From the IMG/VR virus record IMGVR_UViG_3300049009_000874, positions 125,230 to 189,229 of that record: 64,000 nt of DNA. One strand, 5' to 3'. The DNA is from a virus. Taxonomy: Duplodnaviria > Caudoviricetes. Position 1 is the first letter of the stretch, and every line of letters begins with the position of its first letter. The translations under genes and the position numbers were made by a program. Below are positions 18,143-55,264 of the stretch, one piece after another. The notes beneath the pieces were generated by a model. It searched no databases. It saw only the letters and a list, made by a program, of their open reading frames with translations, and was not told the DNA's origin.

Positions 18143-19518
18143 GAAGCAAGATCCCGGAGAAATATGTCGACAACATAAACCATTGCGCCGACCACAACCG
18201 GGGGATGCAGGTCAACCTCTGGACCGACGACATCTCCAGCAACGCCAAGAACGCGACAACCAGGATCGTTAAGACCGAGAACCCAAGATTCCACGAAGAG
18301 ACGAACATGGCTGCCAAGGCTGACGTCTTGAGGTACGAGATAATCAGTTCCGAGGGCGGCATATATTCCGACGTCGACTCGATATACCTAAGGTCCTTTG
18401 ACTCGGACATCATGAAGAAGCCGTTCGTCAGCCACACCTTCGATCCGTGGAACAACCTAACGAACGCGGTGTTCGGATTCCCAGCCGGTCACGAGTTCAT
18501 GGGGTTCGTGGTCGAGTCGCTGCGGCACAGCAGGCTGGAAAGCGACATAACCCGCCGGACCGGACCTGACTTCTTCACGTCGTGCTACCGGAGATACAGG
18601 GGAGACGAATCTTCCGCGTGGAGGAATTTCTGCTCCAGAGACCCATGGTGCGTCCACCAGGACAAGCTCGTGTATCCGAAGCGTTCCGCCGAGGAGAACC
18701 GCAAGGTTTGGTATTCGTTCCACACCAACGACGCCTCTTGGTCAACCAAGAAGCCGATTCCGAGATCCAGACCGAAGGTGTCCTACTGCACGTCCATAAG
18801 GAACAGGCTAGGTTTCCTCAAGGAGACCCTACCCCAGAACCTGATGGACGCCAGGGTTGATTCCGAATTCGTCGTCCTCGACTATGGCTCGTCAGACGGT
18901 CTCTCGGAATGGATAAGACCATACGTCAGCAACGGTCTCGTCCAGTATTTCCAAGCCCACGACCAGAAGTTCTGGCGCAACTCTCACGCCAAGAACGTGG
19001 CTGCCTGGTGCGCCACAGGGGGCATCGTGTGCAACGTGGACGCCGACAACTACATAACAAGGGGCTTCCACGAGCATGTCGTGGGAAACGCCGAAAAAGG
19101 TAGGGCTCTCAGTTCGCCTCCGGGTCTGAGGGGGGTCACGGGAAGGATAGCCTGCCACAAGACCGACTTCCTGGCTTCCGGCGGCTACAACGAGAGATTC
19201 AGTTTCGGCTGGGGTTGCGAGGACATAGACCTCGTGACAAGGCTCAGGTTCATGGGCGTCGACTTCAAGTACATACCGATGGCGTATCTCGAGCACATAG
19301 ACCACGATGACTCGATCAGGTCTTCTGAGTCCGAGGACAGGTCGATCTCGTCGTCGAGGTCGAAGAGCCACAGGATAATGGAGGAGTGTCTGAAAAGATG
19401 CGAGTACGTATCGAACTCCAACCAGCAGAAATGCGGTCATTCGAGGCTCACGAGGAACTATGTCGAGGAGATCCGTTCTGGATGGAACCCTAGGACGGAA
19501 CTCTTAAAACTTCCGTGA
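18091..19518 (+). CDS. Two-domain glycosyltransferase (GT32-like plus GT2/GT7-like)
   Basis: IPGKIHFVW, ADVLRYE..GGIYSDVD; then VVLDYGS, NVDAD and GGYNE..GWGCED. Confidence 0.88.
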   Translation: MHVQSEKIPGKIHFVWLGSKIPEKYVDNINHCADHNRGMQVNLWTDDISSNAKNATTRIVKTENPRFHEETNMAAKADVLRYEIISSEGGIYSDVDSIYLRSFDSDIMKKPFVSHTFDPWNNLTNAVFGFPAGHEFMGFVVESLRHSRLESDITRRTGPDFFTSCYRRYRGDESSAWRNFCSRDPWCVHQDKLVYPKRSAEENRKVWYSFHTNDASWSTKKPIPRSRPKVSYCTSIRNRLGFLKETLPQNLMDARVDSEFVVLDYGSSDGLSEWIRPYVSNGLVQYFQAHDQKFWRNSHAKNVAAWCATGGIVCNVDADNYITRGFHEHVVGNAEKGRALSSPPGLRGVTGRIACHKTDFLASGGYNERFSFGWGCEDIDLVTRLRFMGVDFKYIPMAYLEHIDHDDSIRSSESEDRSISSSRSKSHRIMEECLKRCEYVSNSNQQKCGHSRLTRNYVEEIRSGWNPRTELLKLP

Positions 19519-20415: not shown

Positions 20416-21372
20416 GTGTCATTCTACAAAAATCAGATACCCATATCGGAGCAGGATTGGATGGAGAGCTTGATGGAACAGATGTGTCTGTCTCGCAAGC
20501 CGCCAATGCAGGTCGAGATGACCGTGGACGCCAGCAAGGTGACGTCGACTTGGAATGGAAGGACGCTGGAGCACGACTTCAGCGTCGGCGGCAAAGAATT
20601 CAAGGCTTCCGTGACATTGTACGCTTACGACCTCTCGAACCTAAAGCTCGGCATAAACAAGAGTAAAATTGTCCCGCTGGCGGATGTTAGCCTCGAGAAC
20701 GTTGATGGCTATGAGATAACCGGGGAATCTGGCTCCGAAGCCACCGAGGTGTACGGGAACATGATTTCGACCGTCGCGAAGGCTTTCGAGACGAACAACA
20801 GCATAGTCGGCGTGAGATATGTCCCGTGGAGCATGCTCATGGCTCCGCTTTACGACAAGATGGTGTCGAGGTTCCTCGAGACAAAAGGCTATTCCAGGGT
20901 GCACGCCAAGCCAGACATATTTCTGAAGGACTCGCTCATATCGAGCCTCCAAGCCGAATTCCCGGAAATGGCATCGAAATCCGCGGCTCACGTCGAGAAA
21001 AACAACAGATACCTTAAAGCCGTCAAGTGGTGGAAGATACTGCTGAGAAACGTCAGGTCCAGCTGGATAGGAAAGATAGTTTCGTTCGACGGAGTCCCAG
21101 CCATGGTCGAGAAGGTCGGCATCGATCTCAACATCGTGGTCTTGGTGGAGGAAAGATCTTCTGCGATGCCGAAACTAACACGGAAATTCATCGGCATAGA
21201 AAACTACAGTTCCCTGACGGACGGATCCCACTTCGACAGGCGCGACCTGTACGGCATCGTTGACCTAGCCAAAGAGACATCGTCGCTGAAAACCCTTCCG
21301 AACCTAGGTCAGACCATGACACCTCCGCCCTTCCCCCCAGAACTCGGGAAACCCGAGGACCATGAAGAATGA
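20416..21372 (+). CDS. Array-family protein carrying the second N-terminal tag
   Basis: MSFYKNQIPISEQDWMESL; YEITGESGSEATEVYG...LYDK core; IGKIVSF..VPAMV C-terminal module. Confidence 0.75.
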   Translation: MSFYKNQIPISEQDWMESLMEQMCLSRKPPMQVEMTVDASKVTSTWNGRTLEHDFSVGGKEFKASVTLYAYDLSNLKLGINKSKIVPLADVSLENVDGYEITGESGSEATEVYGNMISTVAKAFETNNSIVGVRYVPWSMLMAPLYDKMVSRFLETKGYSRVHAKPDIFLKDSLISSLQAEFPEMASKSAAHVEKNNRYLKAVKWWKILLRNVRSSWIGKIVSFDGVPAMVEKVGIDLNIVVLVEERSSAMPKLTRKFIGIENYSSLTDGSHFDRRDLYGIVDLAKETSSLKTLPNLGQTMTPPPFPPELGKPEDHEE

Positions 21373-21378
21373 AACGAA

Positions 21379-22119
21379 TCAGCTGTTCCTCTCTATGTTC
21401 CCTAATCTGGTCAGGTGCTTGTCCCTCGACTTGTGCAGCGGGTCCATCATGTCCGTGAACTCCTTGTCGGCGTGAACCTTCGAAAGGTCTTGCTTCTGCC
21501 TGAAAGTCCTCACGTGTGGCATGAAGTCCTCTCCCCTTATCCTGCCCGTCCTGTCCATGATTATCAAGGTGACCAGCAGCTTAGGCTTGATCTCGTCCCT
21601 TATCTTGCCTTCCCCGTCGAATATCGAGCCCCAGAGCTTCCTTGGGAATCCTCCGTCCTGCTGCAGCGACATGTGGTTGTCTATGACGAAAAAAAGCACC
21701 TCCCTGTCCTCCCGGGGCAATGAGTCGTATATGTCTTTCAATCCGCCGCTGAGCTTCGATATCTGCGGCATGTAGTGACCGGGGTTCTCGTGCCCGTGGG
21801 CGGTTATCCTTCCCCCGTCGACCTTCGTGGCGGTAGCCTTGCCGATGTCGTGGAACCAGGCAGCCAGCTTCAGTATCTTCATCTCCCTCTTGTCGTAACT
21901 CGTTCCTAAGTTCGAGAATATAGATCCAGGCTTGGAAGCCTCGCGCCTGATGAACTCTATCGCCATCGGAAGCCTGCTTCGAACCATCCTAGTGTGCGTG
22001 AACACGTCGCCCTCGGCGTGGTGCTTGTCGCTCTGGACCACGGGCTTCAGTATGTCGCCGAGCGACGACTCGGAACTCAAGACCACAGACAGATAATCCC
22101 TGAATGTTTTGTTTTCCAT
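21379..22119 (-). CDS. HD-domain phosphohydrolase with N-terminal tag
   Basis: HHAEGDVFTHT and AAWFHDIGK; starts MENKTFRDYL. Confidence 0.85.
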   Translation of the reverse strand: MENKTFRDYLSVVLSSESSLGDILKPVVQSDKHHAEGDVFTHTRMVRSRLPMAIEFIRREASKPGSIFSNLGTSYDKREMKILKLAAWFHDIGKATATKVDGGRITAHGHENPGHYMPQISKLSGGLKDIYDSLPREDREVLFFVIDNHMSLQQDGGFPRKLWGSIFDGEGKIRDEIKPKLLVTLIIMDRTGRIRGEDFMPHVRTFRQKQDLSKVHADKEFTDMMDPLHKSRDKHLTRLGNIERNS

Positions 22120-22133: not shown

Positions 22134-22835
22134 TTAAGCCTTCTCGACTTCACCGTCGTCCCATTCTTCCTCGCCGCTTAGGTGCGGAGGCAGCGGCAAC
22201 CCCCTCTTGGCGTACTTGATCCTCTCGACCGACCTGTCGTCCTTCTCGTTCCTTTTCTGGGCGAGACCGGCGAACTCTGGCATCAGCGAGGAGATCCTTT
22301 CCACAAGATCGGATTTCATGTACACGTTGTAGACCTTCGTGTAGCCGAGCGGCTTCATTATGTCCCTGTAGAAGACGTCGTACATCTTCTGGAGGCTGTC
22401 CGTGGACCCGAGGAACGTTATGCCTTGCGGGCTTTCCATGTCCACGAGCGACTTGAGGGCTCCGAACAGGCGGGTGTACACCGCGAACGGGTTGGTGCTG
22501 TCCTTCGGTCTCAGCGACCCGTTCACCGAAAGCGAAACCTCGTATATCTTTATGCCCATTGGGATATATGGTCTCTCTATCTTCTTCAGGACCATGTAGT
22601 CCACCTTCTGCCTCGTGAAGCCGCTCAGCATCTTTATCAGCTCGTCCACCGAGAGCATCCTCATCTTGACCTTGTATTCGTATTTCCGCGCTTCCTCGCT
22701 TGGCGCCGGCATGCTGAAATTGAGCATGTAAGTGCCTTCCTCGTCCTGCTCGAGATGCTCCGGCGGCGCAGCCGCGTACCTTTCAAGAGCGCCCTCTTCC
22801 AGCATCCTCAGGCACATGTCGTAAAATGAAATCAT
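22134..22835 (-). CDS. Array-family protein (core domain only)
   Basis: Starts MISFYDM like four array genes. FAVYTRLFGALKSLV..ESPQGITFLG...MYD...GYTKV. Confidence 0.75.
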   Translation of the reverse strand: MISFYDMCLRMLEEGALERYAAAPPEHLEQDEEGTYMLNFSMPAPSEEARKYEYKVKMRMLSVDELIKMLSGFTRQKVDYMVLKKIERPYIPMGIKIYEVSLSVNGSLRPKDSTNPFAVYTRLFGALKSLVDMESPQGITFLGSTDSLQKMYDVFYRDIMKPLGYTKVYNVYMKSDLVERISSLMPEFAGLAQKRNEKDDRSVERIKYAKRGLPLPPHLSGEEEWDDGEVEKA

Positions 22836-25352: not shown

Positions 25353-26444
25353 ATGCTGAAACGTTTTAATTGCGCGGAAAAGGGGAAGAAAGCCTTCACC
25401 CTCATCGAACTCTTGGTCGTCATAGCTATCATCGCGATCCTCATCGGGCTACTGCTGCCCGCGGTGCAGAAGGTGCGAGAGGCAGCAGCCAGGATCAGCT
25501 GCGGCAACAACCTGAAACAACTTGGCATGGCCATGATGAATTTCGAATCCACCTACAACTGCCTTCCCACGTCGGGCGAAGGGATGTCCCCTGGCACGGC
25601 AACGGCGCCAGGAGGAACTGTCTTTGATGGCATTTCCTTCTTTACCGCCGTTCTTCCTTTTCTCGAACAAGAAGCCGCAGCCAAACAGGTGAATAACAAT
25701 GTGCAGCATTATTCTGCCGACGCCAATCAGGCGGCTTATAAAACCGTGATCAAATCCTTGGTTTGCCCGGGCAACCCAACCGCTTTGGCGTCTGGTGTTG
25801 ACGCTGGAGGTTACGGAACAACCGATTACATGCCAATTGCTTATTCGGATATCGACCCAACTACCGGAGCCCGTGCCAGCACAAGCCTTGTTTACAAGAA
25901 GGCTGGCATGCTCACCGTGACTGGAACGTTCCCGGCAGGACAAAAAGCTTCCACCATTTCTGATGCAGGGAATGCAGTTCCCAAATTGAAGAACGGCAGA
26001 AGAATCACCGGGATCACCGATGGAGGCTCCAACACCATTGGGTTGTTTGAAGACGTGGGTCGCGGCAACGCCGGCTGGGGCACTGAAGTATCAACCAAAT
26101 ACGGGTCACGCAATATCGCTCGCTGGGCAGAGCCAGACGGCGGCAATGGCGTTTCCGGTCCCGCTTTCGACGACGCGGGCGCGCCAAATAGCGGAGCTGC
26201 GACCTCTGTGGTCATTTCGAAGTGGATCAACCAGAATTCCTACCCGACTGGCGGAACCACCACTTGCCCTTGGTCGATCAACAACTGCGGTCCGAACGAC
26301 GAGCCGTTCTCGTTCCACACCGGCGTGGTCGGCGCGGTGTTCGGCGACGGGCACGTGGCTTTCATCTCTGACAAAGTCGGAGTCGTGACGCTCAAGGCGT
26401 TGGTCACGGCGGACGCCGGCGACCAGATCGGAACTGACTATTGA
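25353..26444 (+). CDS. DUF1559 prepilin-type N-terminal cleavage/methylation protein
   Basis: [41 protein letters not shown]; C-terminal H-X9-DG ([15 protein letters not shown]). Confidence 0.95.
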
Positions 26445-31565: not shown

Positions 31566-32018
31566 TTAGGTCTTGACCATGTACACGGAATCCGAGCCGT
31601 GATGGTCTACGGTCTTCTGGCTTTGGAAACCGAATTTCTTCCAGAAACCCTCGGATACGAGACTGGACACCAGAACCTTCGGATTCGACTTTATTCTCAA
31701 GACCGCATCAGCCAAAGCAATCCCGTGACCCTTCCCGCGATGCATCTTCTCAACGCAAAGATCGTGGATGTAGTGGCAGTCTGGATCTTCGACCTTCCTG
31801 TAATTCTCGTTTATGGGGAAATATTCCCACAAGGTGTAGGGGAAAGAAATGACGTAACCCACCACTTCCTTGTCGATCTCGCACACGAAACACCCTTCCG
31901 GGTATCCCAGTATCTTGGATCGAAAGGATTCGCTTCCCTCGTAGTGGTCGGCGGGATAGCTGCTTGTTCCGATCTGGTCGATGAAATCGAAATCTTCTGG
32001 TTTTGCGTGTCTTATCAT
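31566..32018 (-). CDS. GNAT acetyltransferase
   Basis: MIRHA..ED, YIHDLCV...HRGKGHG and FWKKFGF. Confidence 0.9.
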   Translation of the reverse strand: MIRHAKPEDFDFIDQIGTSSYPADHYEGSESFRSKILGYPEGCFVCEIDKEVVGYVISFPYTLWEYFPINENYRKVEDPDCHYIHDLCVEKMHRGKGHGIALADAVLRIKSNPKVLVSSLVSEGFWKKFGFQSQKTVDHHGSDSVYMVKT

Positions 32019-32131
32019 GAATTCATCATAGTAATGTGGTCAGAAAACCCTACTTTTGTCCACAAAAATTTTTAAAAATTAATATATATGAAGACGACAA
32101 AAAATTTATAAAAAAAAACTAAGGAGTTGTC

Positions 32132-32992
32132 ATGGCAGATTTTAATGTAGATTTAAGTCCAAATTTGGTGAACTTAGGAACTGAAGGAAGCTTGGACACT
32201 AGCGTTCAAAACGGCAACTCTCTTCAGAGAAAGTTGACTGGTGTAATGGTTGAATTTTGTGGTAATAGAAAAATAGTTGGTCGCATTGACGATGGAGGAC
32301 AGTTCAACGAAACTATTGAGAGAGTAAAAGACTATGCAGGAATTACCAAGACCATTGGTGATAACTACATATTCGTCAATAACAACTTTGTTGACTACAA
32401 TGAAGGGGGAACCAGTACTTCCGATGAAGCAAACAATTTGATTGCCATGTTTGATGAATCTGGAATTGTCTACAAAAAATTCACAGACATTGATGGCAGA
32501 ACATTTTCATCTCTTGACAACATGGATAAGCTCATTATTCCAGAACTAGATGAAGGCGATCTTCTTCCATCATTGACCTCTGATGCTAGAAATGCAATCA
32601 CCGATTTTGTCGATGGTGGCGGAACTCTCATCATGTTTGAACCAGATAGTGGCGATGTATTAAATGTCTTGAATGAGCTATTCGGGTGGGAGCTTGAAAC
32701 AAATGGAGTGTCTGAGCCTATTGATATTACTGAGGCTGGAGCCATTCTTTTCCCAGATGAAAGTTCTGACCTTCCTGATTTGAGTGCTACTGATTCACTT
32801 GACACAACTACCCTTCCAGTTAATTCTGTAAGCATCTATACTGGCGATGGATCTAATCAAACAGTTGTAGCCAAGATGCCATATGGTGATGGCTTTGTTT
32901 ATGTTCTTGGTTGGGATTGGTATAACGCACAGCCTGTTGGTGACGAAGATGGCGGCTGGAATCACCTTCTGAGATCTATTTTAAATTCTTAA
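32132..32992 (+). CDS. Acidic protein with class I glutamine amidotransferase-like (Rossmann) domain, possibly virion-associated
   Basis: LIIPE, ITDFVDGGGTLI and YGDGFVYVLGWD; AT-rich codon usage. Confidence 0.6.
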   Translation: MADFNVDLSPNLVNLGTEGSLDTSVQNGNSLQRKLTGVMVEFCGNRKIVGRIDDGGQFNETIERVKDYAGITKTIGDNYIFVNNNFVDYNEGGTSTSDEANNLIAMFDESGIVYKKFTDIDGRTFSSLDNMDKLIIPELDEGDLLPSLTSDARNAITDFVDGGGTLIMFEPDSGDVLNVLNELFGWELETNGVSEPIDITEAGAILFPDESSDLPDLSATDSLDTTTLPVNSVSIYTGDGSNQTVVAKMPYGDGFVYVLGWDWYNAQPVGDEDGGWNHLLRSILNS

Positions 32993-37450: not shown

Positions 37451-38731
37451 TCAAAAAGTTGCGGATGTCTCCGCGCCAGCGTCTTTGGGCACGAAGGCGT
37501 CGGTGGTCGAGCCGTCGAGCCTGGTTATGCCGCGCGAGTGCAGCAGCGTTTTCAGGTACGAATGCCATTCCTTCTGGTTGGGGTCTTCTATCTCGGGAAG
37601 GTTGTAGAACCCCACCATGCCCTCGACCAGCCCGTGCGGTATCGTCTTGGGGTCGACCAGACGACTCAACAGATTGCGCAGATCGATAAGCAACTCGAAG
37701 ACGATCTTCCTTTTGTCGTCGCACACCAGAATGTTCACTCCATCGACGCCCACGTTGGTCACCACCGCCGGCAAAACCCCCAAGTTGCTGGAGTATCCGA
37801 CCACCTTTCCGACAATCTGGGGCTTCATTGACATAGCCTTGCGCATCAATATCTTGACCGACTTGATCCTCTCGATGTTCTTCTCCTGTTCAAAAGTCGC
37901 CTTGCCCGACTTGACCAGGAGTCTACTGTCCCTGTCGACCATCTCGTCCCTCATGTATATGTTGTCGCCGACAGGCGTGAAACCGCCGAACGTCCTCATG
38001 AACCTGTCGTACATGATGTCCATGTAGGCGTGAGCCCCGGTGAATTCCAGACCCTCCACCTTCTCGGTCTCCAGCAGCTTCTTCACCGCAGCCAACACCT
38101 TACCGTATACGGCGGTGCCGCCGGACCCGCTGGACCCGGTCAGACCGTATCCGCCCCCCTTCGAGAACGAGACGCCCCATATGCCGTCGTATTCCTTGCC
38201 CTCTATTTCCCGTTCTTCCCTTTCGAAGGAAACATGGTACTCTTCGCCGCCGTACTCGAAAGTGTGCCCGTAAGCGGTCGCGCTGCTGACCCACGCCTCT
38301 TTTTTATCCGACACGCATCTTTCCACCTCGGACTTCACGGCTTCTCGACTCCTCTCCTCCATCTCCTGCTCCCAGATCTCGACCTCTTTCTTGTACCAGA
38401 AATCCACTCGCTTCCTCTCGTCCTTCCAGTCCGAATGTGCGTCTCTCCAGTCATCCTCGCTCTCGTAGGACTCGGACTCCGGCTCCGGGTTTTCCTCCTC
38501 CCAGGCTTCGACGTCGACGCCGGAGAAGTCCGGGTCGTCCTTGGCGTCCTCGTAGTGAGCCCCGTGGCTTTCGTAGTCGATAGTCCTAGGGTCGACCTGC
38601 TCCTCGCACTGACTCTTTGCCGTCGCGTAGTTGAAACTGGAGGAAGATGTCCTCTCGAGCTCCACCCCAGAACTGTCTATCTGCGACATGCTTGTCAGCT
38701 CGTCGATCCTCAGCCACTCTGTGAACCTCAT
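37451..38731 (-). CDS. Tandem array paralogue 9 (long acidic insert)
   Basis: MRFTEWLRIDELTSMSQIDSSGVEL; shared LTGxSGSGGTAVYGK core; DGST end. Confidence 0.9.
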   Translation of the reverse strand: MRFTEWLRIDELTSMSQIDSSGVELERTSSSSFNYATAKSQCEEQVDPRTIDYESHGAHYEDAKDDPDFSGVDVEAWEEENPEPESESYESEDDWRDAHSDWKDERKRVDFWYKKEVEIWEQEMEERSREAVKSEVERCVSDKKEAWVSSATAYGHTFEYGGEEYHVSFEREEREIEGKEYDGIWGVSFSKGGGYGLTGSSGSGGTAVYGKVLAAVKKLLETEKVEGLEFTGAHAYMDIMYDRFMRTFGGFTPVGDNIYMRDEMVDRDSRLLVKSGKATFEQEKNIERIKSVKILMRKAMSMKPQIVGKVVGYSSNLGVLPAVVTNVGVDGVNILVCDDKRKIVFELLIDLRNLLSRLVDPKTIPHGLVEGMVGFYNLPEIEDPNQKEWHSYLKTLLHSRGITRLDGSTTDAFVPKDAGAETSATF

Positions 38732-38741
38732 GCCGTCTCCT

Positions 38742-39899
38742 TTAAAAATTCAAGTTCAAGTCGCCTATACGGCTTTTCAAGTCATAGGTTGATCCGTCGA
38801 AATTGGATATTCCTCGTGACGAAAGTTCTTGTTTTATAGTCACCTCTCCGCCGATGTAACTTTGAACCATATCTTCGACGAACCCTGGCGCGATCTTTTC
38901 CGGGCTTTCAATGTTTGCGAGCATTCTTGGGTTGAAGGAAAATTCGATTGGAAATTTGTGGTCCCATCTCTGCCCAGTAGTGTCTGATCCGAATGCCAGC
39001 AGCTTGATTCCCTGATTGCTTATGTCTGTCAATACTGCAGGAATAATGTGCCTGCCCGATTGCAAGCCCGTGACCTTCCCGACTATCTTGGACTTGTCCG
39101 CCATAAGGTTTCGCAACTTTTCTTTTGCCATCTTGATCCTACCTATCCTGTCGTCATGCTCCTTCCCGAAATCCTTGTGGCTCTCGACATCTTTCAGCAG
39201 GTCCTTGCGGACGAACAGGTCGTTACCTTGGAATCCAGACTGATAATTGGTGTGAACGGGAACAAAGTTGCCTAGCGCCTTGAGGAACTTGTCGTACATT
39301 ATGTCCATGAAAGGATGCGCCCCATAGAACTTGAAACCCTTCACGTCCTCTATCTCCGTCAGCTTCTTGATCGCAGCCAACATCTTCGAGTAGACCTTGA
39401 CCGCGCCACCGCCGGAAGTGCCGGTCAGGGCGGTTCTCCCGTTCCTCGTGAAGATCACTTCCCAAACATCAATGTCATTTCCTTCAACGACACCCGAATG
39501 CCTTGAGAAGCTGACTTCGTAAACGTCCCTGTCGTCAACGGTGAACTTGTATTCGTACTCCATCGCCGGCTTGCCTTTTTGGTCTCGCTCCCACTCCTCC
39601 TCTTTCTCGTCCACGCACTGTCTTATCATATACTCACGCGCCTCATCACGCTTTCTCTCTTGTTCCTCCCGCTTCCGCTTCCGCAAGACATAAGAATCCT
39701 CTTCATCTTCATCTTCATCTTCATCCTCATCATCTTCTTCGTCCCAATCTATGTCTCCATCATTCATGTTTCGGGCGCATTCGCCATACGCCTCATCCTC
39801 GTCGAAGTCGTCTCCAATCCTCTTCAGCTCGACCCCCGAGCTGTCCAACTGCGACAACTTCGTAATCTCGTCGATCCTCAGCCACTCCATGAACCTCAT
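38742..39899 (-). CDS. Tandem array paralogue 8 (poly-acidic insert)
   Basis: MRFMEWLRIDEI; DEEDDEDEDEDEDEED tract; shared core. Confidence 0.9.
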   Translation of the reverse strand: MRFMEWLRIDEITKLSQLDSSGVELKRIGDDFDEDEAYGECARNMNDGDIDWDEEDDEDEDEDEDEEDSYVLRKRKREEQERKRDEAREYMIRQCVDEKEEEWERDQKGKPAMEYEYKFTVDDRDVYEVSFSRHSGVVEGNDIDVWEVIFTRNGRTALTGTSGGGAVKVYSKMLAAIKKLTEIEDVKGFKFYGAHPFMDIMYDKFLKALGNFVPVHTNYQSGFQGNDLFVRKDLLKDVESHKDFGKEHDDRIGRIKMAKEKLRNLMADKSKIVGKVTGLQSGRHIIPAVLTDISNQGIKLLAFGSDTTGQRWDHKFPIEFSFNPRMLANIESPEKIAPGFVEDMVQSYIGGEVTIKQELSSRGISNFDGSTYDLKSRIGDLNLNF

Positions 39900-40531
39900 G
39901 GCACCCCCCCGTCAAACCCTTCAGGTTCGCCTGTTGGGTTTTTCAACATGTCCTTGGCTTTCGCCATTGAAGCCCTCTTTTCCGCCCTCTGCTCATCCTT
40001 ATTAGCCTTGAGACTGGCTATCCACTTGTCGTTGATTTTCTCCATTTCCTCAGCCTTGTCCTTGAGACCGCCAGACAGCAGTTCGGTCCTCATGTATGTC
40101 TCGTTGCCGACCGGCTTGAAGCCTCCCAACATTTTTATGAACTTGTCGTACATTATGTCCATGGATCTCTCTTGCCCAGAGAAAGTAAGACCGTCCACCT
40201 TGTCGATCTCCGTAAGCTTCTTGATCGACCCCAACAACTTCGAGTACACCCCGACCGCCCCGCCTCCCGAAGTCCCCGTCAGACTCATTCCACGCTTGCC
40301 CTTGAAATAAATCGACCAAACGGAGAAGTCCTTGCCGCTCAAATTGTTTACCTTTCTAGATGCATCCGCGTCGAGGTACGCCTCGACACGGAAATCCTCG
40401 CCGTCATGCTTGAAGCTGAAATAGTGATAACTCCCGGGACCAGACCTGTCCAATACTATGTTGGAACTGTCTATCTTCGAAATGTCCGTCAGTTCGTCCA
40501 GCCTAAGCCACATATCGTAAAACGAAATCAT
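39896..40531 (-). CDS. Tandem array paralogue 7 (lacks C-terminal domain)
   Basis: MISFYDMWLRLDEL; core present; ends FDGGVP. Confidence 0.9.
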   Translation of the reverse strand: MISFYDMWLRLDELTDISKIDSSNIVLDRSGPGSYHYFSFKHDGEDFRVEAYLDADASRKVNNLSGKDFSVWSIYFKGKRGMSLTGTSGGGAVGVYSKLLGSIKKLTEIDKVDGLTFSGQERSMDIMYDKFIKMLGGFKPVGNETYMRTELLSGGLKDKAEEMEKINDKWIASLKANKDEQRAEKRASMAKAKDMLKNPTGEPEGFDGGVP

Positions 40532-40542
40532 GCCGTCTCCTT

Positions 40543-41550
40543 TTAAAAACCGAAATCGTAAGTGGAACCGTCGAAAGGGATGCCGAGACGAGAAAGTTCC
40601 GCGTTCAGCTTAGATCCCGGGGTCTTGAAGAAATTAACCATGTCCGTCACGTCCTTCGGAGCAAGAACTTTCGGGCTCTTGATCTGAGAGAGATCTTCCA
40701 GGTCGACGGTCTCCCACCGGTAGTAGCCCTCGGGAGACTTCGTGATCAGGCTTATCTCTCCCTGCTTGATGTCCCTCACGATCGCAGGAACGACCTTCCC
40801 TCCGTACTCGAAGGACGACAGACCAGTTACCTTGCCGATTATGGATTTCTTCGATGACACCAAATCCCTGAACTTGAGCTTCGATGACTTGAGGGTCTTT
40901 ATCCTGTCGTCATGCTCCTTGCCGGCGACATTCGTGACGTAGTCCGCGTGGACTGGCTCGAGATCCTTCACCAGCTCGTCCCTGATGTAGACGCCGCTGC
41001 CGACTGGCTTGAAGCCGCCGAACGTCTTGAGGAACCTGTCGTACATGATGTCCATGTACACGTGAGCCCCGGTGAACGTCAGACCGTCCACCTTCTCGGT
41101 GTCCAGCAGCTTCTTGACGGCGGACAGAACCTTTCCGTATATCGCCATCCCGCTGGAACCGGAAGTCCCGGTAAGGCTCATGGAATCGTTCTTCGAGAAG
41201 GATACGTCCCACACGTCCTCCCACGTCCTGCCGAACGCCGTGACCGGGCTTTTCTTCATCTCGACATCGAACCTGTCGAAGTCGTGCTCGAACTCGTAGG
41301 TGTATATGTCGGACTTCATAGACTCCCATTTCTTCTTCCTGCTGTTCACGCACAGGTTGATCTTCTTGTAGTCCTTGCTGTCGAGATGACCGCCGCCCTT
41401 GCTCATGAACACCTTCTCGGCGCACTCGTCTCTAGCCTCGACTTCGTCGAATTCCCTGCGGTGCGACTTGAGCTCCACGCCAGAGCTGTCTATCTGCGAC
41501 ACCTTCGTAAGCTCGTCGATCCTCAGCCACATGTCGTAAAAAGAAATCAT
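40543..41550 (-). CDS. Tandem array paralogue 6 (short basic insert)
   Basis: MISFYDMWLRIDEL; ends FDGSTYDFGF. Confidence 0.9.
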   Translation of the reverse strand: MISFYDMWLRIDELTKVSQIDSSGVELKSHRREFDEVEARDECAEKVFMSKGGGHLDSKDYKKINLCVNSRKKKWESMKSDIYTYEFEHDFDRFDVEMKKSPVTAFGRTWEDVWDVSFSKNDSMSLTGTSGSSGMAIYGKVLSAVKKLLDTEKVDGLTFTGAHVYMDIMYDRFLKTFGGFKPVGSGVYIRDELVKDLEPVHADYVTNVAGKEHDDRIKTLKSSKLKFRDLVSSKKSIIGKVTGLSSFEYGGKVVPAIVRDIKQGEISLITKSPEGYYRWETVDLEDLSQIKSPKVLAPKDVTDMVNFFKTPGSKLNAELSRLGIPFDGSTYDFGF

Positions 41551-42392
41551 GCCGTCTCCTTTTTGAAACCGAAATCGTATGTTGACCCGTCGACCTTCAA
41601 GCCTAACGTCTTCAAATATTTACTCAGATCAGAATCGTCTTTCTGGATTTCGCCCATGAGCGACGAGATGAGGCTCTGGTCGATAGAACTCGGGCTCGTG
41701 GAATATTCCAATTCACCCGAGTCAATGTATTTCTTGCTGAAACCGTGCCCGTCCCAAACGAGCAAGGTCAAACCGAATGAATTGATGCCCCAGATGATGG
41801 CTGGCAACACCTTCCCGGAATCGCTGTCGCTGTAACCAGTTATCTTCCCGGTCAAGCCCTTGTTCCTAGACGCGGCTTTCGCGACCTTCAGGTTGTGCAA
41901 TTTTCTTTCCCTCCTTTCGCCGACACCCTTGTATTGTTTCAAATCCTCCTCGGAAGCGTTAGCCTTGATCACTTCGTCTTTAAGGTAGACGTTGCCGCCG
42001 ACTGGCGTAAAACCTCCCAATGTCTTCAAAAACTTGTCGTACATGATGTCCTGCCTAGAATCAAACCCGGAGAAATACAGACCGTTGACCTCCTCGATCT
42101 CCGTCAGTTTCTTGATCGCAGCCAGTATCTTCCCGTACACGGCGGTTCCGCCGCTTCCGGAATCCCCGGTGAGTTCGTAGCTGTTGTTTTTCGAGAACAT
42201 AACGCTCCATATCCCGTCCACCATCTTGTCGCCGACCTGCTTCGCGGAATAGGGGCTAAGCGACACACTGATCTGGTCGAACTCGTAGCTGTATCCCCTC
42301 GGCCAGTCTCTTTTCTTCAGTTCCACCCCGGAACTGTCTATCTGCGACATGCTCGACAGTTCATCGATCCTCAGCCATTCTATAAATCTCAT
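41547..42392 (-). CDS. Tandem array paralogue 5
   Basis: MRFIEWLRIDEL; ends DGSTYDFGFKKETA. Confidence 0.9.
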   Translation of the reverse strand: MRFIEWLRIDELSSMSQIDSSGVELKKRDWPRGYSYEFDQISVSLSPYSAKQVGDKMVDGIWSVMFSKNNSYELTGDSGSGGTAVYGKILAAIKKLTEIEEVNGLYFSGFDSRQDIMYDKFLKTLGGFTPVGGNVYLKDEVIKANASEEDLKQYKGVGERRERKLHNLKVAKAASRNKGLTGKITGYSDSDSGKVLPAIIWGINSFGLTLLVWDGHGFSKKYIDSGELEYSTSPSSIDQSLISSLMGEIQKDDSDLSKYLKTLGLKVDGSTYDFGFKKETA

Positions 42393-43240
42393 GCCGTCTC
42401 CTTTTTGAAACCGAAATCGTATGTTGACCCGTCGACCTTCAAGCCTAACGTCTTCAACATGCGACTCAGATCAGAATCGTCTTTCTGGATTTCACCCATG
42501 AGCGACGAGATGAGGCTCGGGTCGATCAAACTGGGGCTCGTGATAACATATTCCAATTCATCCGAATCAATGTTTTTCTTGCTGACGCCGCTACCGTCCC
42601 AAACGAGCAAAGCCAAAGCGGATGAATTGATGTTCAATATGATGGCTGGGGCATTCTGAATGGGTGAGTTGCTGTAACCCGTTATCTTCCCGATCAAGCC
42701 CTTGTTCCTCGACGCGGCTTTCGCGACCTTCAGGTTGTATATTTGATTGTCCCTCTTTTCGCCGGCTTTCTTGTAGAGTTCCAAGTCCTCTCCCGAAGCG
42801 TTAGCCTTTATGTACTCGTCCTTCAAGTAGATGTTGCTGCCTACCGGCGTGAAACCTCCCAACGCCTTCAGGAACCTGTCGTACATGATGTCCTGCCTAG
42901 AATCAAAACCGGAGAACTTCAGACCGTTCACCTCCTCGACCTCCATCAGTTTCTTGACCGCAGCCAGAACCTTGCCGTACACGGCAGTGCCGCCGCTGCC
43001 GGAAGCCCCGGTGAGCGCGTAGCTGGTGCCCCTCTTGAAACTCACTCCCCATATCCCGTCCACCACCATCTTGTCTCCGACCTTCCTGCTCGGAACACGA
43101 TAAAGCATCACGGTGAAATCGTCGAACTTGTACTCGTATGATCCGCCGAAGACCTTCTCGAGCTCCACCACGGAACTGTCCACCTGAGACATGCTCGACA
43201 GTTCGTCCAGCCTAAGCCACATGTCGTAAAAAGAAATCAT
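42389..43240 (-). CDS. Tandem array paralogue 4
   Basis: MISFYDMWLRLDEL; ends DGSTYDFGFKKETA. Confidence 0.9.
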   Translation of the reverse strand: MISFYDMWLRLDELSSMSQVDSSVVELEKVFGGSYEYKFDDFTVMLYRVPSRKVGDKMVVDGIWGVSFKRGTSYALTGASGSGGTAVYGKVLAAVKKLMEVEEVNGLKFSGFDSRQDIMYDRFLKALGGFTPVGSNIYLKDEYIKANASGEDLELYKKAGEKRDNQIYNLKVAKAASRNKGLIGKITGYSNSPIQNAPAIILNINSSALALLVWDGSGVSKKNIDSDELEYVITSPSLIDPSLISSLMGEIQKDDSDLSRMLKTLGLKVDGSTYDFGFKKETA

Positions 43241-44085
43241 GCCGTCTCCTTTTTGAAACCGAAATCGTAAGTTGACCCGTCGACGCTCAAGCCTGACGTC
43301 TTCAATTTTTCGCTCAAACTGGAATCGTCTTTCTGGATTTCGACCATGAGCGACGACATGATACTCTGGTCGATCATGCTGGGGCTCACAAAATTTCCCA
43401 AGTCATAGGATGGCACTGTTACAATTTCTGCCCTTGCCCCGTCCCAGACTATAGTTTTAACATATATCGACACATCTATGCGCAATATGATGGCTGGCAA
43501 TATCATCCCAGAATCGCTATCGCTGTAACCAGTTATCTTCCCGATCAAGCCCTTGTTCCTCGACGCGACTTTCGCGACCTTCATGTTGTATATGCCGTTC
43601 TCCCTCTTTTCGCTGACTCCCTTGTAGTACTCCAAGTCTTCTCCCGAAGCGTTAGCTTTGATCACCTCGTCCCTCATGTAAATGTCGTTGCCTACATGCG
43701 TGAATCCTCCCAGAGTCTTCAGGAACTTGTCGTACATGATGTCCTGCCTAGGATCAGCCCCGATAAACTTGAGACCGTTGACATCCTCGACCTCCGTCAG
43801 TTTTTTGACCGCGCCTAGTATCTTGCCGTACACGGCGGTGCCGCCGCTGCCAGAAGTGCCGGTGAGCGCGTAACTTTTGCCCCGCGTGAAATCTACTGAC
43901 CATATGCCGTCAACCATCTTGCCGCCGACCTTCTTCCCGTGCCAGTGATCGAGACTGACGACGAAATCGTCGAACTTGTACTCGTATCCTTCCTCAGATT
44001 TCTCCAATTCCACGCCCGAACTGTCCACCTGAGACATGCTCGACAGCTCGTCGATCCTCAGCCACATGTCGTAAAATGAAATCAT
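43237..44085 (-). CDS. Tandem array paralogue 3
   Basis: MISFYDMWLRIDEL; ends DGSTYDFGFKKETA. Confidence 0.9.
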   Translation of the reverse strand: MISFYDMWLRIDELSSMSQVDSSGVELEKSEEGYEYKFDDFVVSLDHWHGKKVGGKMVDGIWSVDFTRGKSYALTGTSGSGGTAVYGKILGAVKKLTEVEDVNGLKFIGADPRQDIMYDKFLKTLGGFTHVGNDIYMRDEVIKANASGEDLEYYKGVSEKRENGIYNMKVAKVASRNKGLIGKITGYSDSDSGMILPAIILRIDVSIYVKTIVWDGARAEIVTVPSYDLGNFVSPSMIDQSIMSSLMVEIQKDDSSLSEKLKTSGLSVDGSTYDFGFKKETA

Positions 44086-44942
44086 GCCGTCTCCTTTTTG
44101 AAACCGAAATCGTGAGTGGAACCGTCGACATCCGGCAGATCGGCATCTTTCCAGGCTTGATCACCGGATTTGGCGAAATCCATGAGCGAAGAAAGCAAAA
44201 TGGGATTGATCAGGCTTGGGCTTACGACATTTCGTAATTCATCCGAGGGATTGTACAAGGAAGAATACACGTCTTGACGCAAAAGCCTTGCCCCGTCCCA
44301 GACCATAAACTTAAAATGGAGCGACGCGTCTATGCCAACTATGATCGCAGGCAATACATTGCCATAAGAATCACTGTCGCTATAACCCGTTATCTTCCCG
44401 ATCAAGCCCTTGTTCCTCGACGCGGCTTTGGCGACCTTAAGGTTGTATATTTGATTGTCCCTCTTTTCGCCTGCTCCCTTGTAGTATTCCAAGTCATTTC
44501 CCGATGCGTTAGCCTTGACTATCTCGTCCCTGATATAGACGTTGCCGCCTACCGGCGTGAAGCCGCCCAACGCCTTGAGGAACTTGTCGTACATTATGTC
44601 CTGCCTAGCCTCAGCCCCGGAGAAAGACAGACCGTTGACCTTCTCGACCTCCATCAGCTTCTTGACCGCAGCCAGAACCTTCCCATATACAGCAGTTCCG
44701 TCGCTGCCGGATTTCCCGGTCAAAGTCCATCTCCCGTCTCGCATGAAATCGACTATCCATATGCCGTCCACCATCTTGTCGCCTACCTTCTTGCCGAAAT
44801 CACGATTGAGACTGACGAGGAAATCGTCGAATCTGTACCTGTAATTGTTCCCCGACTTCTGCAGCTCGACCCCCGAACTGTCTATCTGCGACATGCTCGT
44901 GAGCTCGTCGATCCTCAGCCACTCGTTGAATTTCATGTTCAT
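44082..44942 (-). CDS. Tandem array paralogue 2
   Basis: MNMKFNEWLRIDEL; ends DGSTHDFGFKKETA. Confidence 0.9.
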   Translation of the reverse strand: MNMKFNEWLRIDELTSMSQIDSSGVELQKSGNNYRYRFDDFLVSLNRDFGKKVGDKMVDGIWIVDFMRDGRWTLTGKSGSDGTAVYGKVLAAVKKLMEVEKVNGLSFSGAEARQDIMYDKFLKALGGFTPVGGNVYIRDEIVKANASGNDLEYYKGAGEKRDNQIYNLKVAKAASRNKGLIGKITGYSDSDSYGNVLPAIIVGIDASLHFKFMVWDGARLLRQDVYSSLYNPSDELRNVVSPSLINPILLSSLMDFAKSGDQAWKDADLPDVDGSTHDFGFKKETA

Positions 44943-44948
44943 TCCTTT

Positions 44949-45956
44949 TTAATGTAGATCGACAAAAGTCGGAGCCTTTTCTAAACCTAGGTCGTATGTA
45001 GATCCATCGAATCTAGCTGGAAGCATAATGTCGTTGATGGAAGTAGAGGAGTCTTCCGGAGAAATTGACTGTATTGTCCCAGGCAGATTTGGGCGACCAT
45101 ATAATCTACGGCTCGTTGACTTTTTGATTATTTCCATCATGTCTCTCATCGTGCTTGCGTCGATCTTTCTCGGACTCACAATCAAGTCTTTGTAAGTTCC
45201 GGATGGGTCGTATAGATCGTTTACTATGCTTAAGTTTAATTTCATGATTTCTGTAGGACTAAAATATACTATAAGTGTGAATTTTTCATCATCGATGTCC
45301 ACTACTATCGCGGGATGAACTATGTTGGATTTTCCATCTGGATTATAACCTACCACCTTTCCGATAATCGCATTTTTGTTCGATAGCGCGTTTCTGAATG
45401 CAATCTTCATCCTCTTAATTTCCTTGATTCTTTTGTTGTGGACTATCAAATTCAAATCAACGTCATCTGATGTCGACCCATCGACATCAGATGACTTCTC
45501 TCTATCCAGTATTTCTTTTTTCACGAACACAGACTGTCCAACCGGCACGAAGCCGAACGCCTTTGCGAATCTGTCGTACATGATATCCATGTTAGGATGT
45601 GCCCCAGCGAACAACAGACCGCCCACATCCTCGATTTCCGTCAATTTCTTGATCGCAGCCATAAGCTTGCCGTACACTGCCGTGCCGCCGCTGCCAGAAT
45701 CGCCAGTAAGACGGGTGCTCCCATTTTTCTTGAATATTATCTCCCATATTTTTTTGTACAAGATCTTCCCTACCAGTCGAGGACCAACATCTCGCATAAT
45801 CACTTCAAATGGGCGACCGCCTCTGCCTTCGACGTCGGAAGGGTCAGCGAAGAAATAACCATAATTGTTCCCCGACTTCAGCAGCTCGACCCCAGAACTG
45901 TCTATCTGCGACATGCTCGTGAGCTCGTCGATCCTCAGCCACTCTATGAATTTCAT
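44949..45956 (-). CDS. Tandem array paralogue 1
   Basis: MKFIEWLRIDEL; GGGGG RBS; FDGSTYDLG near the end. Confidence 0.9.
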   Translation of the reverse strand: MKFIEWLRIDELTSMSQIDSSGVELLKSGNNYGYFFADPSDVEGRGGRPFEVIMRDVGPRLVGKILYKKIWEIIFKKNGSTRLTGDSGSGGTAVYGKLMAAIKKLTEIEDVGGLLFAGAHPNMDIMYDRFAKAFGFVPVGQSVFVKKEILDREKSSDVDGSTSDDVDLNLIVHNKRIKEIKRMKIAFRNALSNKNAIIGKVVGYNPDGKSNIVHPAIVVDIDDEKFTLIVYFSPTEIMKLNLSIVNDLYDPSGTYKDLIVSPRKIDASTMRDMMEIIKKSTSRRLYGRPNLPGTIQSISPEDSSTSINDIMLPARFDGSTYDLGLEKAPTFVDLH

Positions 45957-45981
45957 GAAACCCCCGTTAAATCACATGAAC

Positions 45982-45989
45982 TATATATC
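45982..45989 (-). promoter_or_regulatory. Putative late-type promoter (GATATATA) driving the paralogue array
   Basis: Matches the recurrent intergenic TAnATA motif and lies upstream of the first array gene. Confidence 0.45.
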
Positions 45990-53227: not shown

Positions 53228-55264
53228 TCAGACCTCTCCCCGGAGGTGGCGTTTCAGCCATTCTTGGCGGGCGACTAGCAGATAGTCCTTGATCTCTTGC
53301 GTCCTTGCGTTGTCGATGTCATGCTGCTCCACTTTCGCGCCTTTCTCGCACAGGTATTTTATGAGGTCGAGATCGTTGCTGTTGCTCGTCACGTTGAATA
53401 TGGTGCTATCGGCAATCTTCCCAGGGGCTTTCCCCTTGGGCAGTTTCAGCACATCGCCTAGCTTGCCGGCGACTTCATCCCCGAGTAGGTATTTCACGAC
53501 ATCGATATGCCCGCTCACTGCCGCGACCGACACGGCGCCATCACCTATCCTCCCGCCTTTCTCCACCAGGTGCCTCACGATGTCGAGACGACCCGAGCGC
53601 GCCGCGGAGCCTATGGCGTAATTGCCTATCTTCTCGTTCCCGCCTTTCTCCACCAGGTATTCCACGACATCGAGATGCCCATTTCCCGCCGCCGTGGAAA
53701 TAACAGAATCGCCTATGCGCCCACGCTCCCCGACCAGGTATTTCACGATGTCGAGACGACCCATCTTCGCCGCGCCCTCGACAGCGTTGCCTATAGCCCT
53801 CTGCCCTCCTTGCTCGACCAGGTATTTCACGATATCGAAATGCCCCGACGTCGCTGCGAGCTCCACTCCATCGCCCATGTCCGCGCCTTTGCCCATCAGG
53901 TATTTCACGATTTCAATATTTCCATTTCTTATCGAAGTATCGAAGCCATCACCTATTTCCTCGCCCTTATCGACAAGTTCTTTCACCATTTCAAGTTCAT
54001 CGAGGTTGATCGCCTTGGTCACCTTTGAATGTTTGGTGTTGTTCCACACCTCGCCCTTTTGCTTGGGATTCAGCAACGCGTATTCCTGCTTCGACAAATC
54101 ATTTGACGTGCTGTCCCTTAGCACCCTGTTGTGCAGGTAGTAGTCTTTCAGATCCCTCTTGGCGGTTATCTTCGCGAGCTGGTGGTCGTTCACCTTCAGA
54201 CCGGTCTTCGCGTACTGCGTCATGAGCGAGGCGAAATTCTCGTAGACGTAATCGAACTGCTCGTCCGACAGGGCATGACCCCTGCCGACGTACTTTGACT
54301 TCTCGTCGGGCGACAGCGACCTGAACCAGCCAAGGTCTCCGTTGTTCTTCCCAAGCTTCGCCTGCTCCGCGTCCTCCTCCGGCGATTTCGGTATGTTCCT
54401 GAATATGCCCGCGTCGATGCCTCTCTCCCGCAAGTACCTGAAGTAAAGCTCCGGGTCCGAATCTATCCTCTTCTTCTCCGTCGGCGAAAAAGGGTCCTGC
54501 ATGGTTTTCGCAGTATGGTTGGCTCGGTCGGTCAGCTCGATCCTGTCCCGCGTCGCGTCGACCACGACTATAGCCAGGTCGTCGGTCCTCGTGCTGTCGT
54601 AAACGAAGTGGAAGGTCGACACCTTGTCGTCCCTGTAGGACTGGAACATGGTGTTAGCCGGCTGCGAGATGCAGAAACTCTCGCCTTTCCCCAGTATGAT
54701 GCATTGGTTGGCAGAGTTCGCCTTGTAGACCTTTATCTTGCCGTCCGCCGACTGCGCCATCAGCTCCTGGTCGCTCACGTCGCCCTGCACCGGCGCGTTG
54801 CGTACCCTGTCCTCGTACTTCTTGCCGTGGAGGACCTCCGTCCAGCCGAGGTGGCTCGACATGTGGGGGTTGTCCACCTTGAGGTCGTCGCCCACGGACA
54901 GAACCGGCATCTTGCTGTCATTGACCAGCTTCGCGTAGTCGGCGATGTCCGTCCTGAGCGAGTTCAGGTCCTTCACCCTCATGTCCGCGTAGTAGAAAGC
55001 CGCCAGGGCGACTATCTTCCCCTGCAGCTTCGTCGGCACCTTGGCGGGAAGAATCCCCTGGATCTGATTCAGCAACGACTCGTCTCCGCCGAGTATCTCC
55101 CTCGCTATGTCTGCCGCCTTCCTCGCCTCCGCCAGCAGCAGCCATTCCCTGAAGGAATCCATCGTGGGGAGACCGCCCCGGACCGCGTCCCTGCCCTCGC
55201 CCACCTGAACCGAAAACCCGTAAAAGCTCCTCATCGAATTGATTCTCCAGTTTGTTGCCATCAC
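53228..55264 (-). CDS. Ankyrin-repeat protein with N-terminal tag (alternative start 55162)
   Basis: About eight AAxxGHxDIVKYLVEKG repeats; MDSFREWLLLAEA; middle GKGESFCIS...FQSY domain. Confidence 0.88.
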   Translation of the reverse strand: MMATNWRINSMRSFYGFSVQVGEGRDAVRGGLPTMDSFREWLLLAEARKAADIAREILGGDESLLNQIQGILPAKVPTKLQGKIVALAAFYYADMRVKDLNSLRTDIADYAKLVNDSKMPVLSVGDDLKVDNPHMSSHLGWTEVLHGKKYEDRVRNAPVQGDVSDQELMAQSADGKIKVYKANSANQCIILGKGESFCISQPANTMFQSYRDDKVSTFHFVYDSTRTDDLAIVVVDATRDRIELTDRANHTAKTMQDPFSPTEKKRIDSDPELYFRYLRERGIDAGIFRNIPKSPEEDAEQAKLGKNNGDLGWFRSLSPDEKSKYVGRGHALSDEQFDYVYENFASLMTQYAKTGLKVNDHQLAKITAKRDLKDYYLHNRVLRDSTSNDLSKQEYALLNPKQKGEVWNNTKHSKVTKAINLDELEMVKELVDKGEEIGDGFDTSIRNGNIEIVKYLMGKGADMGDGVELAATSGHFDIVKYLVEQGGQRAIGNAVEGAAKMGRLDIVKYLVGERGRIGDSVISTAAGNGHLDVVEYLVEKGGNEKIGNYAIGSAARSGRLDIVRHLVEKGGRIGDGAVSVAAVSGHIDVVKYLLGDEVAGKLGDVLKLPKGKAPGKIADSTIFNVTSNSNDLDLIKYLCEKGAKVEQHDIDNARTQEIKDYLLVARQEWLKRHLRGEV

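Follow-up and report, generated by a model that had tools for sequence, protein, structure and literature searches.

Bacteriophage T4 directs its internal proteins to the head by means of a capsid targeting sequence (CTS), the 10-residue peptide MKTYQEFIAE, which takes any fused protein into the head and is cleaved once, at its end, by the prohead protease (PMC8442874). The internal proteins themselves are highly basic (PMC8442874). The head of the giant phage SPN3US contains about 50 proteins, including a paralogue family A, in which the diverged gp53 and gp54 have identical first 15 residues and protease motifs, and a family B of 20 members, all of them head proteins, with counts that differ widely between related phages (PMC5694885). 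In both SPN3US and phiKZ the head paralogue families include inner-body proteins (PMC5694885). Here we describe an array of nine paralogous genes at positions 37451-45956 of a 64,000-nucleotide (nt) stretch of DNA from a huge, uncultivated phage of fresh water (the window), which is the terminal part, bases 125230-189229, of a 189,229-bp IMG/VR virus record. The encoded proteins share a conserved N-terminal peptide (the tag), and by analogy with the giant-phage head paralogue families we tentatively favour the reading that they are tag-addressed cargo packaged in the head, an explanation we regard as possible rather than probable.

As far as analogy goes, the SPN3US head paralogue families are the closest known behaviour to that of the array. 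In both cases there are multi-paralogue families (with up to 20 members there), the number of members varies between related phages, and diverged paralogues keep their N-terminus, which in SPN3US is an identical propeptide with protease motifs inside. However, in SPN3US and phiKZ the virion location of these families was established by mass spectrometry, and no Pfam family, the phiKZ inner-body family PF12699 included, matches the nine array proteins at E-values up to 1. The likeness to T4 lies in the tag, which is a short amphipathic peptide at the N-terminus with the order aromatic-x-E-aromatic-aliphatic, ending in [IL]-x-E at about residues 10-13 (MKTYQEFIAE in T4, M-R-F-I-E-W-L-R-I-D-E in the array). 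With its length of about ten residues and a gp21-type [LI]-x-E site at its end, the array peptide agrees with the T4 type, as a pattern match alone. Several adjacent genes bear the same peptide in T4 as well as in the array, and the peptide pattern occurs on otherwise unrelated proteins of this genome too. In contrast, T4 internal proteins are highly diverse and have only the CTS in common, whereas the array proteins, of 211-426 residues (aa), are mutually homologous and built of two domains; and packaging and cleavage are proven for T4 and putative for the array.

Genes and predicted architecture of the array

An earlier note on this DNA had placed nine co-oriented open reading frames (ORFs) at 37451-45956, and its coordinates proved exact: all nine lie on the minus strand and every copy is intact. 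Five junctions are 4-nt ATGA overlaps (genes 2/3, 3/4, 4/5, 5/6 and 7/8), as it had also described, and the gaps at the other three are 6, 11 and 10 nt. The array is probably a single operon, and its genes are old paralogues. Gene 1 (44949-45956, 335 aa) starts with MKFIEWLRIDE, carries VDGSTSD as an additional internal motif and is extended in its C-terminal region; its orthologues in two relatives have 336 aa each. Gene 2 (44082-44942, 286 aa) is of the ~282-aa type, composed of tag, GNAT-like core, helix, barrel and DGSTHDFGFKKETA tail. Gene 4 (42389-43240, 283 aa) and gene 5 (41547-42392, 281 aa) are of the same type, and gene 3 (43237-44085, 282 aa), a mosaic, is the copy used for modelling. 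The long forms are gene 6 (40543-41550, 335 aa), with an insert FDE..A..EC...C...W after the tag, gene 8 (38742-39899, 385 aa), with a very acidic insert (isoelectric point, pI, 4.8), and gene 9 (37451-38731, 426 aa), with the largest acidic insert (pI 4.8). Gene 7 (39896-40531, 211 aa) consists only of tag, core and long helix and has neither the barrel nor the DGST tail. A weak terminator-like hairpin at 37461-37474 overlaps the 3' end of gene 9.

The alignment of the nine proteins contains 44 invariant columns, which include W-L-R-x-D-E, S..DSS...L, L-T-G-x-S-G, Y.K, KKL and D-I-M-Y-D-x-F. Both constant regions read earlier from the letters are therefore real: the N-terminal W-L-R-x-D-E...S..D-S-S...L is invariant in all nine and the core LTGxSG...Y.K...KKL...DIMYD.F is seen throughout. 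Near the C-terminus DGST[YHT]D is found in eight of the nine copies, and the C-terminal domain is missing from the 211-aa copy. The other proteins are 39-45% identical to that of gene 1, and the four ~282-aa copies are 67-71% identical among themselves. Since E-values within this family of one genome range from 1e-32 to 1e-116, the similarity reflects homology and not chance.

Structure prediction gives the order of parts in these proteins as a 12-25-residue N-terminal peptide, a GNAT-like core, a long helix and a variable Tudor/SH3-like barrel ending with DGSTxD. The AlphaFold2 model of gene 3 (predicted local distance difference test, pLDDT, 83; predicted template-modelling score, pTM, 0.75) has a flexible N-terminal helix at residues 4-12 (low confidence), an alpha/beta core at ~21-143, a long helix at 148-175 and a beta-barrel at ~180-225, followed by short helices and a tail, of which residues 271-280 have a pLDDT of ~88. 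Tudor, MBT and similar domains resemble this barrel at Z ~5, and on the basis of the model we describe the C-terminal domain as Tudor/SH3-like.

Modelled on its own (pLDDT 85), the core appears to have a minimal GNAT-like alpha/beta fold. In an exhaustive structural comparison (VIA) with this core, about 45 of the 50 best rows were GNAT-fold proteins, with a top Z of 7.5 (3dns_B, root mean square deviation, rmsd, 3.7, with 100 of 126 residues aligned); they include the RimI N-terminal domain, Elp3, the acetyl-CoA domain of ICL2/Rv1916, AAC enzymes, Eis, Naa enzymes, Gcn5, TacT and phage Mu Mom. The top rows in Foldseek were also GNAT-fold proteins (the toxins AtaT, KacT, GmvT and TacT, and the Rv1916/ICL2 acetyl-CoA domain), with a best E of 0.034 and probability of 0.92, and so the tRNA-acetylating toxins AtaT, TacT and KacT are among the fold matches. 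As modelled, the core has in common with the GNAT superfamily the order of beta-sheet, loop, helix 3, strand 5, helix 4 and strands 6-7, as well as a Gly-rich loop before helix 3 and a conserved Tyr on helix 4. It differs in having beta-hairpins instead of helices alpha1-alpha2, in the level of structural similarity (Z <=7.5, TM-score ~0.5 or lower) and in the lack of any sequence-profile match, the Pfam Acetyltransf_* profiles having matched none of 21 family members at E<=10 and none of 136 representatives at E<=0.01.

GNAT motif A (Q/R-x-x-G-x-G/A) binds the pyrophosphate of acetyl-CoA. In the place where it sits, before helix 3, the array has a T-G-x-S-G-x-G-G loop, of which the family-wide consensus is only L-T-G-x-x-G-x-x-A, and by eye neither the canonical Q/R-x-x-G-x-G/A nor helices alpha1-alpha2 are present in the gene 3 model. 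Among the 136 diverse representatives Tyr86 and Tyr118 are invariant, and Glu13, Phe38, Phe107 and Phe121 are at least 90% conserved. Since no single match is significant, we name the core GNAT-like only and do not claim enzyme activity; in this restricted, model-based form the enzyme-like character suggested in the earlier note holds. Two other assignments were discarded. Weak matches to models of ABC transporters (E 0.02-0.07) suggested that GxSGSGG might be a Walker-A motif, which we rejected because it has no invariant Lys, the family consensus is only TGxxG and the predicted sheet is GNAT-like. Rows of T4 Alt-like ADP-ribosyltransferases in BFVD had rmsd above 25 Å and probability of ~0.4, and were considered noise.

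The N-terminal peptide and a possible role in packaging

In the array the tag reads M-x-F-x-[ED]-W-L-R-[IL]-D-E, with W-L-R-[IL]-D-E within residues 6-13 in all nine proteins, and in the wider family M-N-F-K-E-W-L-x-x-E-[IM]-x-D-I...D-T-S-x-I-x-L. Over the first 30 codons, paralogues of one genome show a nonsynonymous divergence (dN) of 0.115 and a synonymous divergence (dS) of 0.93. Because dS is so high and dN so low, the peptide must be kept by selection on the protein and not by recent gene conversion. An aromatic pair is found within the first 16 residues in 110 of the 136 representatives, and in 58% of those 110, against 9% of control windows, it is followed within 10 residues by [LIVM]xE, with Glu commonest at residue 11.

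The tag is enriched also on other ORFs of the contig. The pattern M-x(0-4)-[FY]-x-x-[WFYM]-[LIMFV] starts 36 of the 231 ORFs, plainly hydrophobic false positives among them, as against 2.5% of internal Met positions, and clear tag starts include MIGFAEWLRIDE, MKFKEWFVVNE, MQNFKEWL, MNFKKWLLSE, MNTESFRDWLGLQE and MRNISFKDWMLLQE. The first of these, MIGFAEWLRIDE, begins a 102-aa ORF outside the window (contig 31874-32182, plus strand), the remainder of which is unrelated and is not matched by the family hidden Markov model (HMM). In a distant phage (L022) the tag heads an array of its own and also a neighbouring 272-aa ORF starting with MRFRKWFEMSS..., which by eye resembles a tagged ORF at 21379-22119 of the window, itself without a Pfam match. 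That array, at L022:8262-13598 on the plus strand, consists of four genes (365, 220, 592 and 609 aa) with overlaps of ~11 nt, and in the 592- and 609-aa genes two complete modules are fused via a proline-rich linker, with an internal copy of the tag in each. The description of these as tagged proteins therefore survives: the tag behaves as portable, is under selection at the protein level, is found on non-family ORFs and has a T4 CTS-like pattern.

How would such a tag act? We infer packaging, cleavage, injection and an enzymatic activity along the following lines. The N-terminal peptide, in the manner of the T4 CTS, would attach the protein to the prohead core, and a gp21-type prohead protease would cut the peptide off after the conserved Glu. 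Packaged inside the head, the proteins would enter the host together with the DNA. There the conserved core would provide either an activity shared by all paralogues, which may depend on acyl-CoA or nucleotides, or a shared scaffold, and the divergent barrel a separate target for each paralogue. In a much broader version, which we think unlikely to hold, M-x-F-[KR]-[ED]-[WF]-[LI]...E would be a general capsid-address code of a wide clade of uncultivated huge phages, loading dozens of proteins for injection, with the array as the largest cargo class, re-aimed at host targets by recombination of the barrel modules. The cargo under this putative code could include, in addition to the array, an AAA_33 P-loop (kinase-like) protein, a GP88-family protein and many unknowns. 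Should the peptide address proteins for packaging, the injected cargo of a whole uncultivated clade would become predictable from sequence alone by a single short motif, and if packaging is true, the array would exemplify cargo diversified by module swaps between paralogues. Even if the peptide is no address, the combination of GNAT-like and Tudor/SH3-like domains represents a new architecture.

Several observations weigh against the packaging of the array proteins. They are neutral to acidic (pI 4.8-6.9), whereas the T4 internal proteins are highly basic. Close behind the tag of the non-family ORFs, [LIVM]xE is found in only 6 of 26. The fused two-module proteins of L022 retain the internal tag copy, and the tag is inherited along the family over very distant phages, two features that an N-terminal helix integral to the domain would explain as well. 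The GNAT assignment comes with Z below 8, Foldseek E above 0.01 and no GNAT Pfam match. The only link to a virion that was found for the family is weak: P0133, a relative with five tandem cores, matches EST35_0349 (141 aa) of the cultured phage PA5oct, annotated as 'structural protein, ESI-MS/MS', and this protein is the only match of the core profile in the whole PA5oct genome, with a marginal E of 0.011 and hhalign probability of 19%. In PA5oct, 93 proteins are virion-associated by mass spectrometry (PMC7318152). Neither the gp21 protease (PF03420) nor the gp23 capsid protein (PF07068) was found on the 189-kb contig, and control genomes were likewise unmatched; since the contig is only ~39% complete (CheckV), this result is uninformative and we do not count it as a negative.

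Alternatively, the proteins may never enter the virion and act instead in the infected cell, as GNAT-like acyltransferases that take over or modify the host, with the barrel selecting protein or nucleic-acid targets. The conserved N-terminus would then be a part of the fold or a binding motif for a common phage or host partner rather than a packaging signal, consistent with the internal tag in the fused double modules and with its conservation along the family. The dominance of GNATs in the fold lists, including the tRNA-acetylating AtaT, TacT and KacT as well as phage Mu Mom, also argues for such enzymes, as do the conserved Gly-rich loop before helix 3, the invariant Tyr86 and Tyr118, and the position of the array amid glycosyltransferase and methyltransferase genes and not structural genes. 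However, the GNAT profile match, the canonical Q/R-x-x-G-x-G/A and helices alpha1-alpha2 are all missing, the N-terminal pattern on unrelated ORFs is left unexplained, and it would be unusual to find nine or more paralogues of a single enzyme in a phage metabolic role. We consider this explanation rather unlikely.

Another way to account for constant ends and variable interiors is that the proteins are non-enzymatic components of the virion (inner-body-like, scaffold-like or surface decoration), whose paralogues co-assemble via the conserved terminal peptides. The confidently modelled DGST[YT]D tail would fit such a role, and enzyme-inactive GNAT-like folds do exist, antizyme being among the fold matches. 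The proteins contain Ser/Thr-rich motifs (DSS, DGST) and their genes adjoin four GT2-type glycosyltransferase genes and one FkbM methyltransferase gene, so the flanking glycosyltransferases might glycosylate them. The inner-body proteins in the SPN3US and phiKZ head families offer a precedent (PMC5694885). Against this, no known structural family is similar in Pfam, PHROG or PDB sequences, and one member lacks the entire C-terminal half. Moreover, the constancy of the C-terminus is partly that of a coupling cassette at the DNA level, because the KKETA codons (F-K-K-E-T-A-stop is encoded as TTC AAA AAG GAG ACG GCA TGA) hold the Shine-Dalgarno sequence AAGGAG of the next gene plus the ATGA overlap, and the final ~45 nt are almost identical in four genes. 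This cassette may also serve as a recombination handle. A purely structural role is in our judgement quite improbable, and head-packaged cargo remains the reading we prefer.

Old lineages and exchange between paralogues

In independent assemblies of related phages the array lies between the same neighbour genes, and its DNA is present in freshwater, lake, estuary and runoff metagenomes from nine studies, which excludes an assembly artefact. The nine proteins of this window have, in gene order, 335, 286, 282, 283, 281, 335, 211, 385 and 426 aa. A 101.8-kb contig (L016) also has nine genes (282, 286, 282, 281, 286, 336, 297, 385 and 422 aa), while ten are found on a 57-kb contig (L017; 336, 289, 282, 290, 335, 211, 184, 284, 387 and 426 aa) and on a 39-kb contig (336, 295, 278, 286, 283, 335, 186, 284, 388 and 424 aa). 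The order of the ~282-aa units varies between phages, and a few members have been gained or lost. In a quick maximum-likelihood tree of 35 members, in which very long branches lead to the two most diverged copies, each paralogue clusters with its counterparts from other phages; most ends within groups have lengths of 0.004-0.2 and the branches leading to the groups of ~0.1-2. Since the paralogues group by lineage across phages, the duplications must be old and the lineages have been maintained.

The term 'accordion', which the earlier note had applied to the array, is therefore misplaced. A poxvirus-style genomic accordion consists of near-identical recent duplicates with fast change of number, whereas the array paralogues are 39-71% identical, have dS of 0.3-1.2 between them, form orthologue clades of their own and number 9-10 in each phage. 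Large swings in copy number were not seen either, the relatives with 9 or 10 genes differing by a few gains, losses and reshufflings. The array is a stable mosaic multigene family and not a recent copy-number accordion. One estuary metagenome contig (depth 10.7) skips 1705 nt, or about two units, at 42174-43880 of the window, with 12 unmatched letters at the joint, which hints at a strain with two fewer array units; contigs aligned to the array broke inside it.

By the Nei-Gojobori method, pairwise comparison of orthologues gives a dN/dS of 0.05-0.08 for gene 6, the most conserved member, 0.10-0.21 for gene 9 and 0.15-0.63 for the rest. In 30-codon windows along the ~282-aa group it is ~0.17 in the tag and 0.25-0.4 in the core, and reaches 0.8-1.0 only in two stretches of the C-terminal domain. 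The variation is thus concentrated in the C-terminal barrel, as had been suggested. The positive selection proposed along with it does not find support, with gene-wide values of 0.05-0.63 and no 30-codon window above ~1.

The nearest relative of a gene switches by segment. The core of gene 3 is closest to another orthologue lineage (A4/C3) and its barrel to its own orthologues, so that gene 3 is a mosaic; the last segment of gene 4 is nearest to the gene 5 lineage; and the N-terminus comes in two flavours, MISFYDMWLR and M[RK]FxEWLR, which are exchanged among orthologues. Each lineage is defined by the barrel segment (alignment columns 196-260), where the nucleotide distance between lineages is at least 0.27-0.31. 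The paralogues therefore exchange segments and the gene order has been shuffled, which answers the question of recombination positively. Taken as a whole, the earlier interpretation keeps the tag analogy, the variable C-terminal domain and the enzyme-like fold, and loses the accordion and positive selection, with injection a hypothesis. In gene 1, the DNA at 45462-45495 forms a perfect 15-bp inverted repeat with a 4-nt loop, encoding SSDVDGSTSDDVD, an internal copy of the DGST motif that is elsewhere a C-terminal mark; the repeat could be a recombination scar or an RNA hairpin.

Frequent mosaic exchange between copies, the near-identity of the last ~45 nt with the ribosome-binding site of the next gene, and gene-wide dN/dS of 0.3-0.6 for several members could all be expected if the array were a nearly neutral by-product of recombination-prone repeats, its ends reflecting translational coupling and gene conversion only, but this already disfavoured idea is hardly credible given that copies are intact in every assembly seen, that each paralogue lineage persists across related phages, that dN/dS amounts to only 0.05-0.2 in genes 6 and 9, and to ~0.17 over the tag, where paralogue dS is 0.93, and that the family and its arrays recur in distant phages. 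The weight that remains beyond these four readings belongs to something outside the explanations listed here.

The wider family and its genomic setting

The family is larger than the array, and three more diverged members are found in the window: at 15675-16586 (plus strand; starting with MKFKEWFVVNE, E 1e-23), at 20416-21372 (plus strand; 318 aa, with core and barrel and without canonical tag) and at 22134-22835 (minus strand; 233 aa, starting with MISFYDMCLRMLEE). Just upstream of the first of them, a 755-aa ORF at 13411-15678 (plus strand; start MNFRDYI) shows a marginal match to the family HMM in four stretches (E 0.005), and it may contain degenerate repeats of the core. When 1.84 billion representatives were searched with the family profile, 390 metagenomic clusters (at 50% identity) were retrieved with E<=0.001, and 233 with E<=1e-10. 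The nine array proteins have no match in PHROG or NCBIfam, Pfam scans of the 21 family members (E<=10) and of the 136 representatives (E<=0.01) returned nothing, and a PDB sequence profile search gave nothing below E 1. The proteins thus belong to a large family of huge phages that is undescribed, since Pfam, PHROGs and NCBIfam do not include it despite its 390 clusters and recurrent tandem arrays. Huge phages of 300-700 kb are known nearly exclusively from metagenomes, and roles have been assigned to only a minority of their genes. Megablast of the array matched no cultured phage, and neither did tblastn of gene 3, P0079, P0156 and P0132 against 50,697 phage records; P0133 alone matched one by tblastn, PA5oct. 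IMG/VR scans with the family alignments provided no usable long relatives, and there was no RNA run among the listed runs that hold the array.

The ESM Atlas clusters that come nearest, judged only by features and structure, contain viral proteins of ~144-179 aa; three of these clusters have DUF6934 (PF22028) in 11-26% of their members, and in BFVD uncharacterised phage proteins of ~150 aa match at E of ~2e-3 to 8e-3. P0133 matches DUF6934 at 3.7e-25 (89 bits) and P0059 at 21 bits, while none of the 21 members scanned at E<=10, window proteins included, has a DUF6934 match. DUF6934 proteins, of which EST35_0349 of PA5oct is one, differ from those of the array in being small phage proteins of ~150 aa with one domain and without the barrel.

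The remainder of the contig encodes phage replication genes, namely helicases, a DnaB-like helicase, a UvsX-like recombinase and a split DNA polymerase; no tRNA genes were found in the 64-kb window. About 25 nt upstream of the start of gene 1, the motif GATATATAG at 45981-45989 (minus strand) is a candidate promoter for the whole array. Motifs of the [AG]TATATA[GT] type, which are palindromic, lie 10-60 nt upstream of many starts, with TATATA occurring 31 times in total in 189 kb. They precede 11 of 28 tagged genes and 32 of 195 untagged ones, a modest excess (p 0.009), and on sequence grounds they are candidate phage promoters.

The neighbours of the array are the four GT2-type glycosyltransferase genes, the FkbM methyltransferase gene and an ankyrin-repeat gene. 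The window has at least five glycosyltransferase genes, among them the one for a 475-aa protein at 18091-19518 (plus strand), in which a DXD sugar-binding glycosyltransferase domain (Gly_transf_sug / TcdA_TcdB-type catalytic, E 1e-12) is combined with a GT2 domain. Two proteins are of eukaryote-like type: a repeat protein at 6354-7844 (plus strand), in which a STIG1-like cysteine-rich tail comes after seven RCC1 repeats, and another at 53228-55264 (minus strand), of 678 aa and with ankyrin repeats. The pilin-like DUF1559 family is typical of Planctomycetota. A DUF1559 (SBP_bac_10) domain protein with an N-terminal methylation motif is encoded at 25353-26444 (plus strand), which hints at Planctomycetota as a possible host of the phage.

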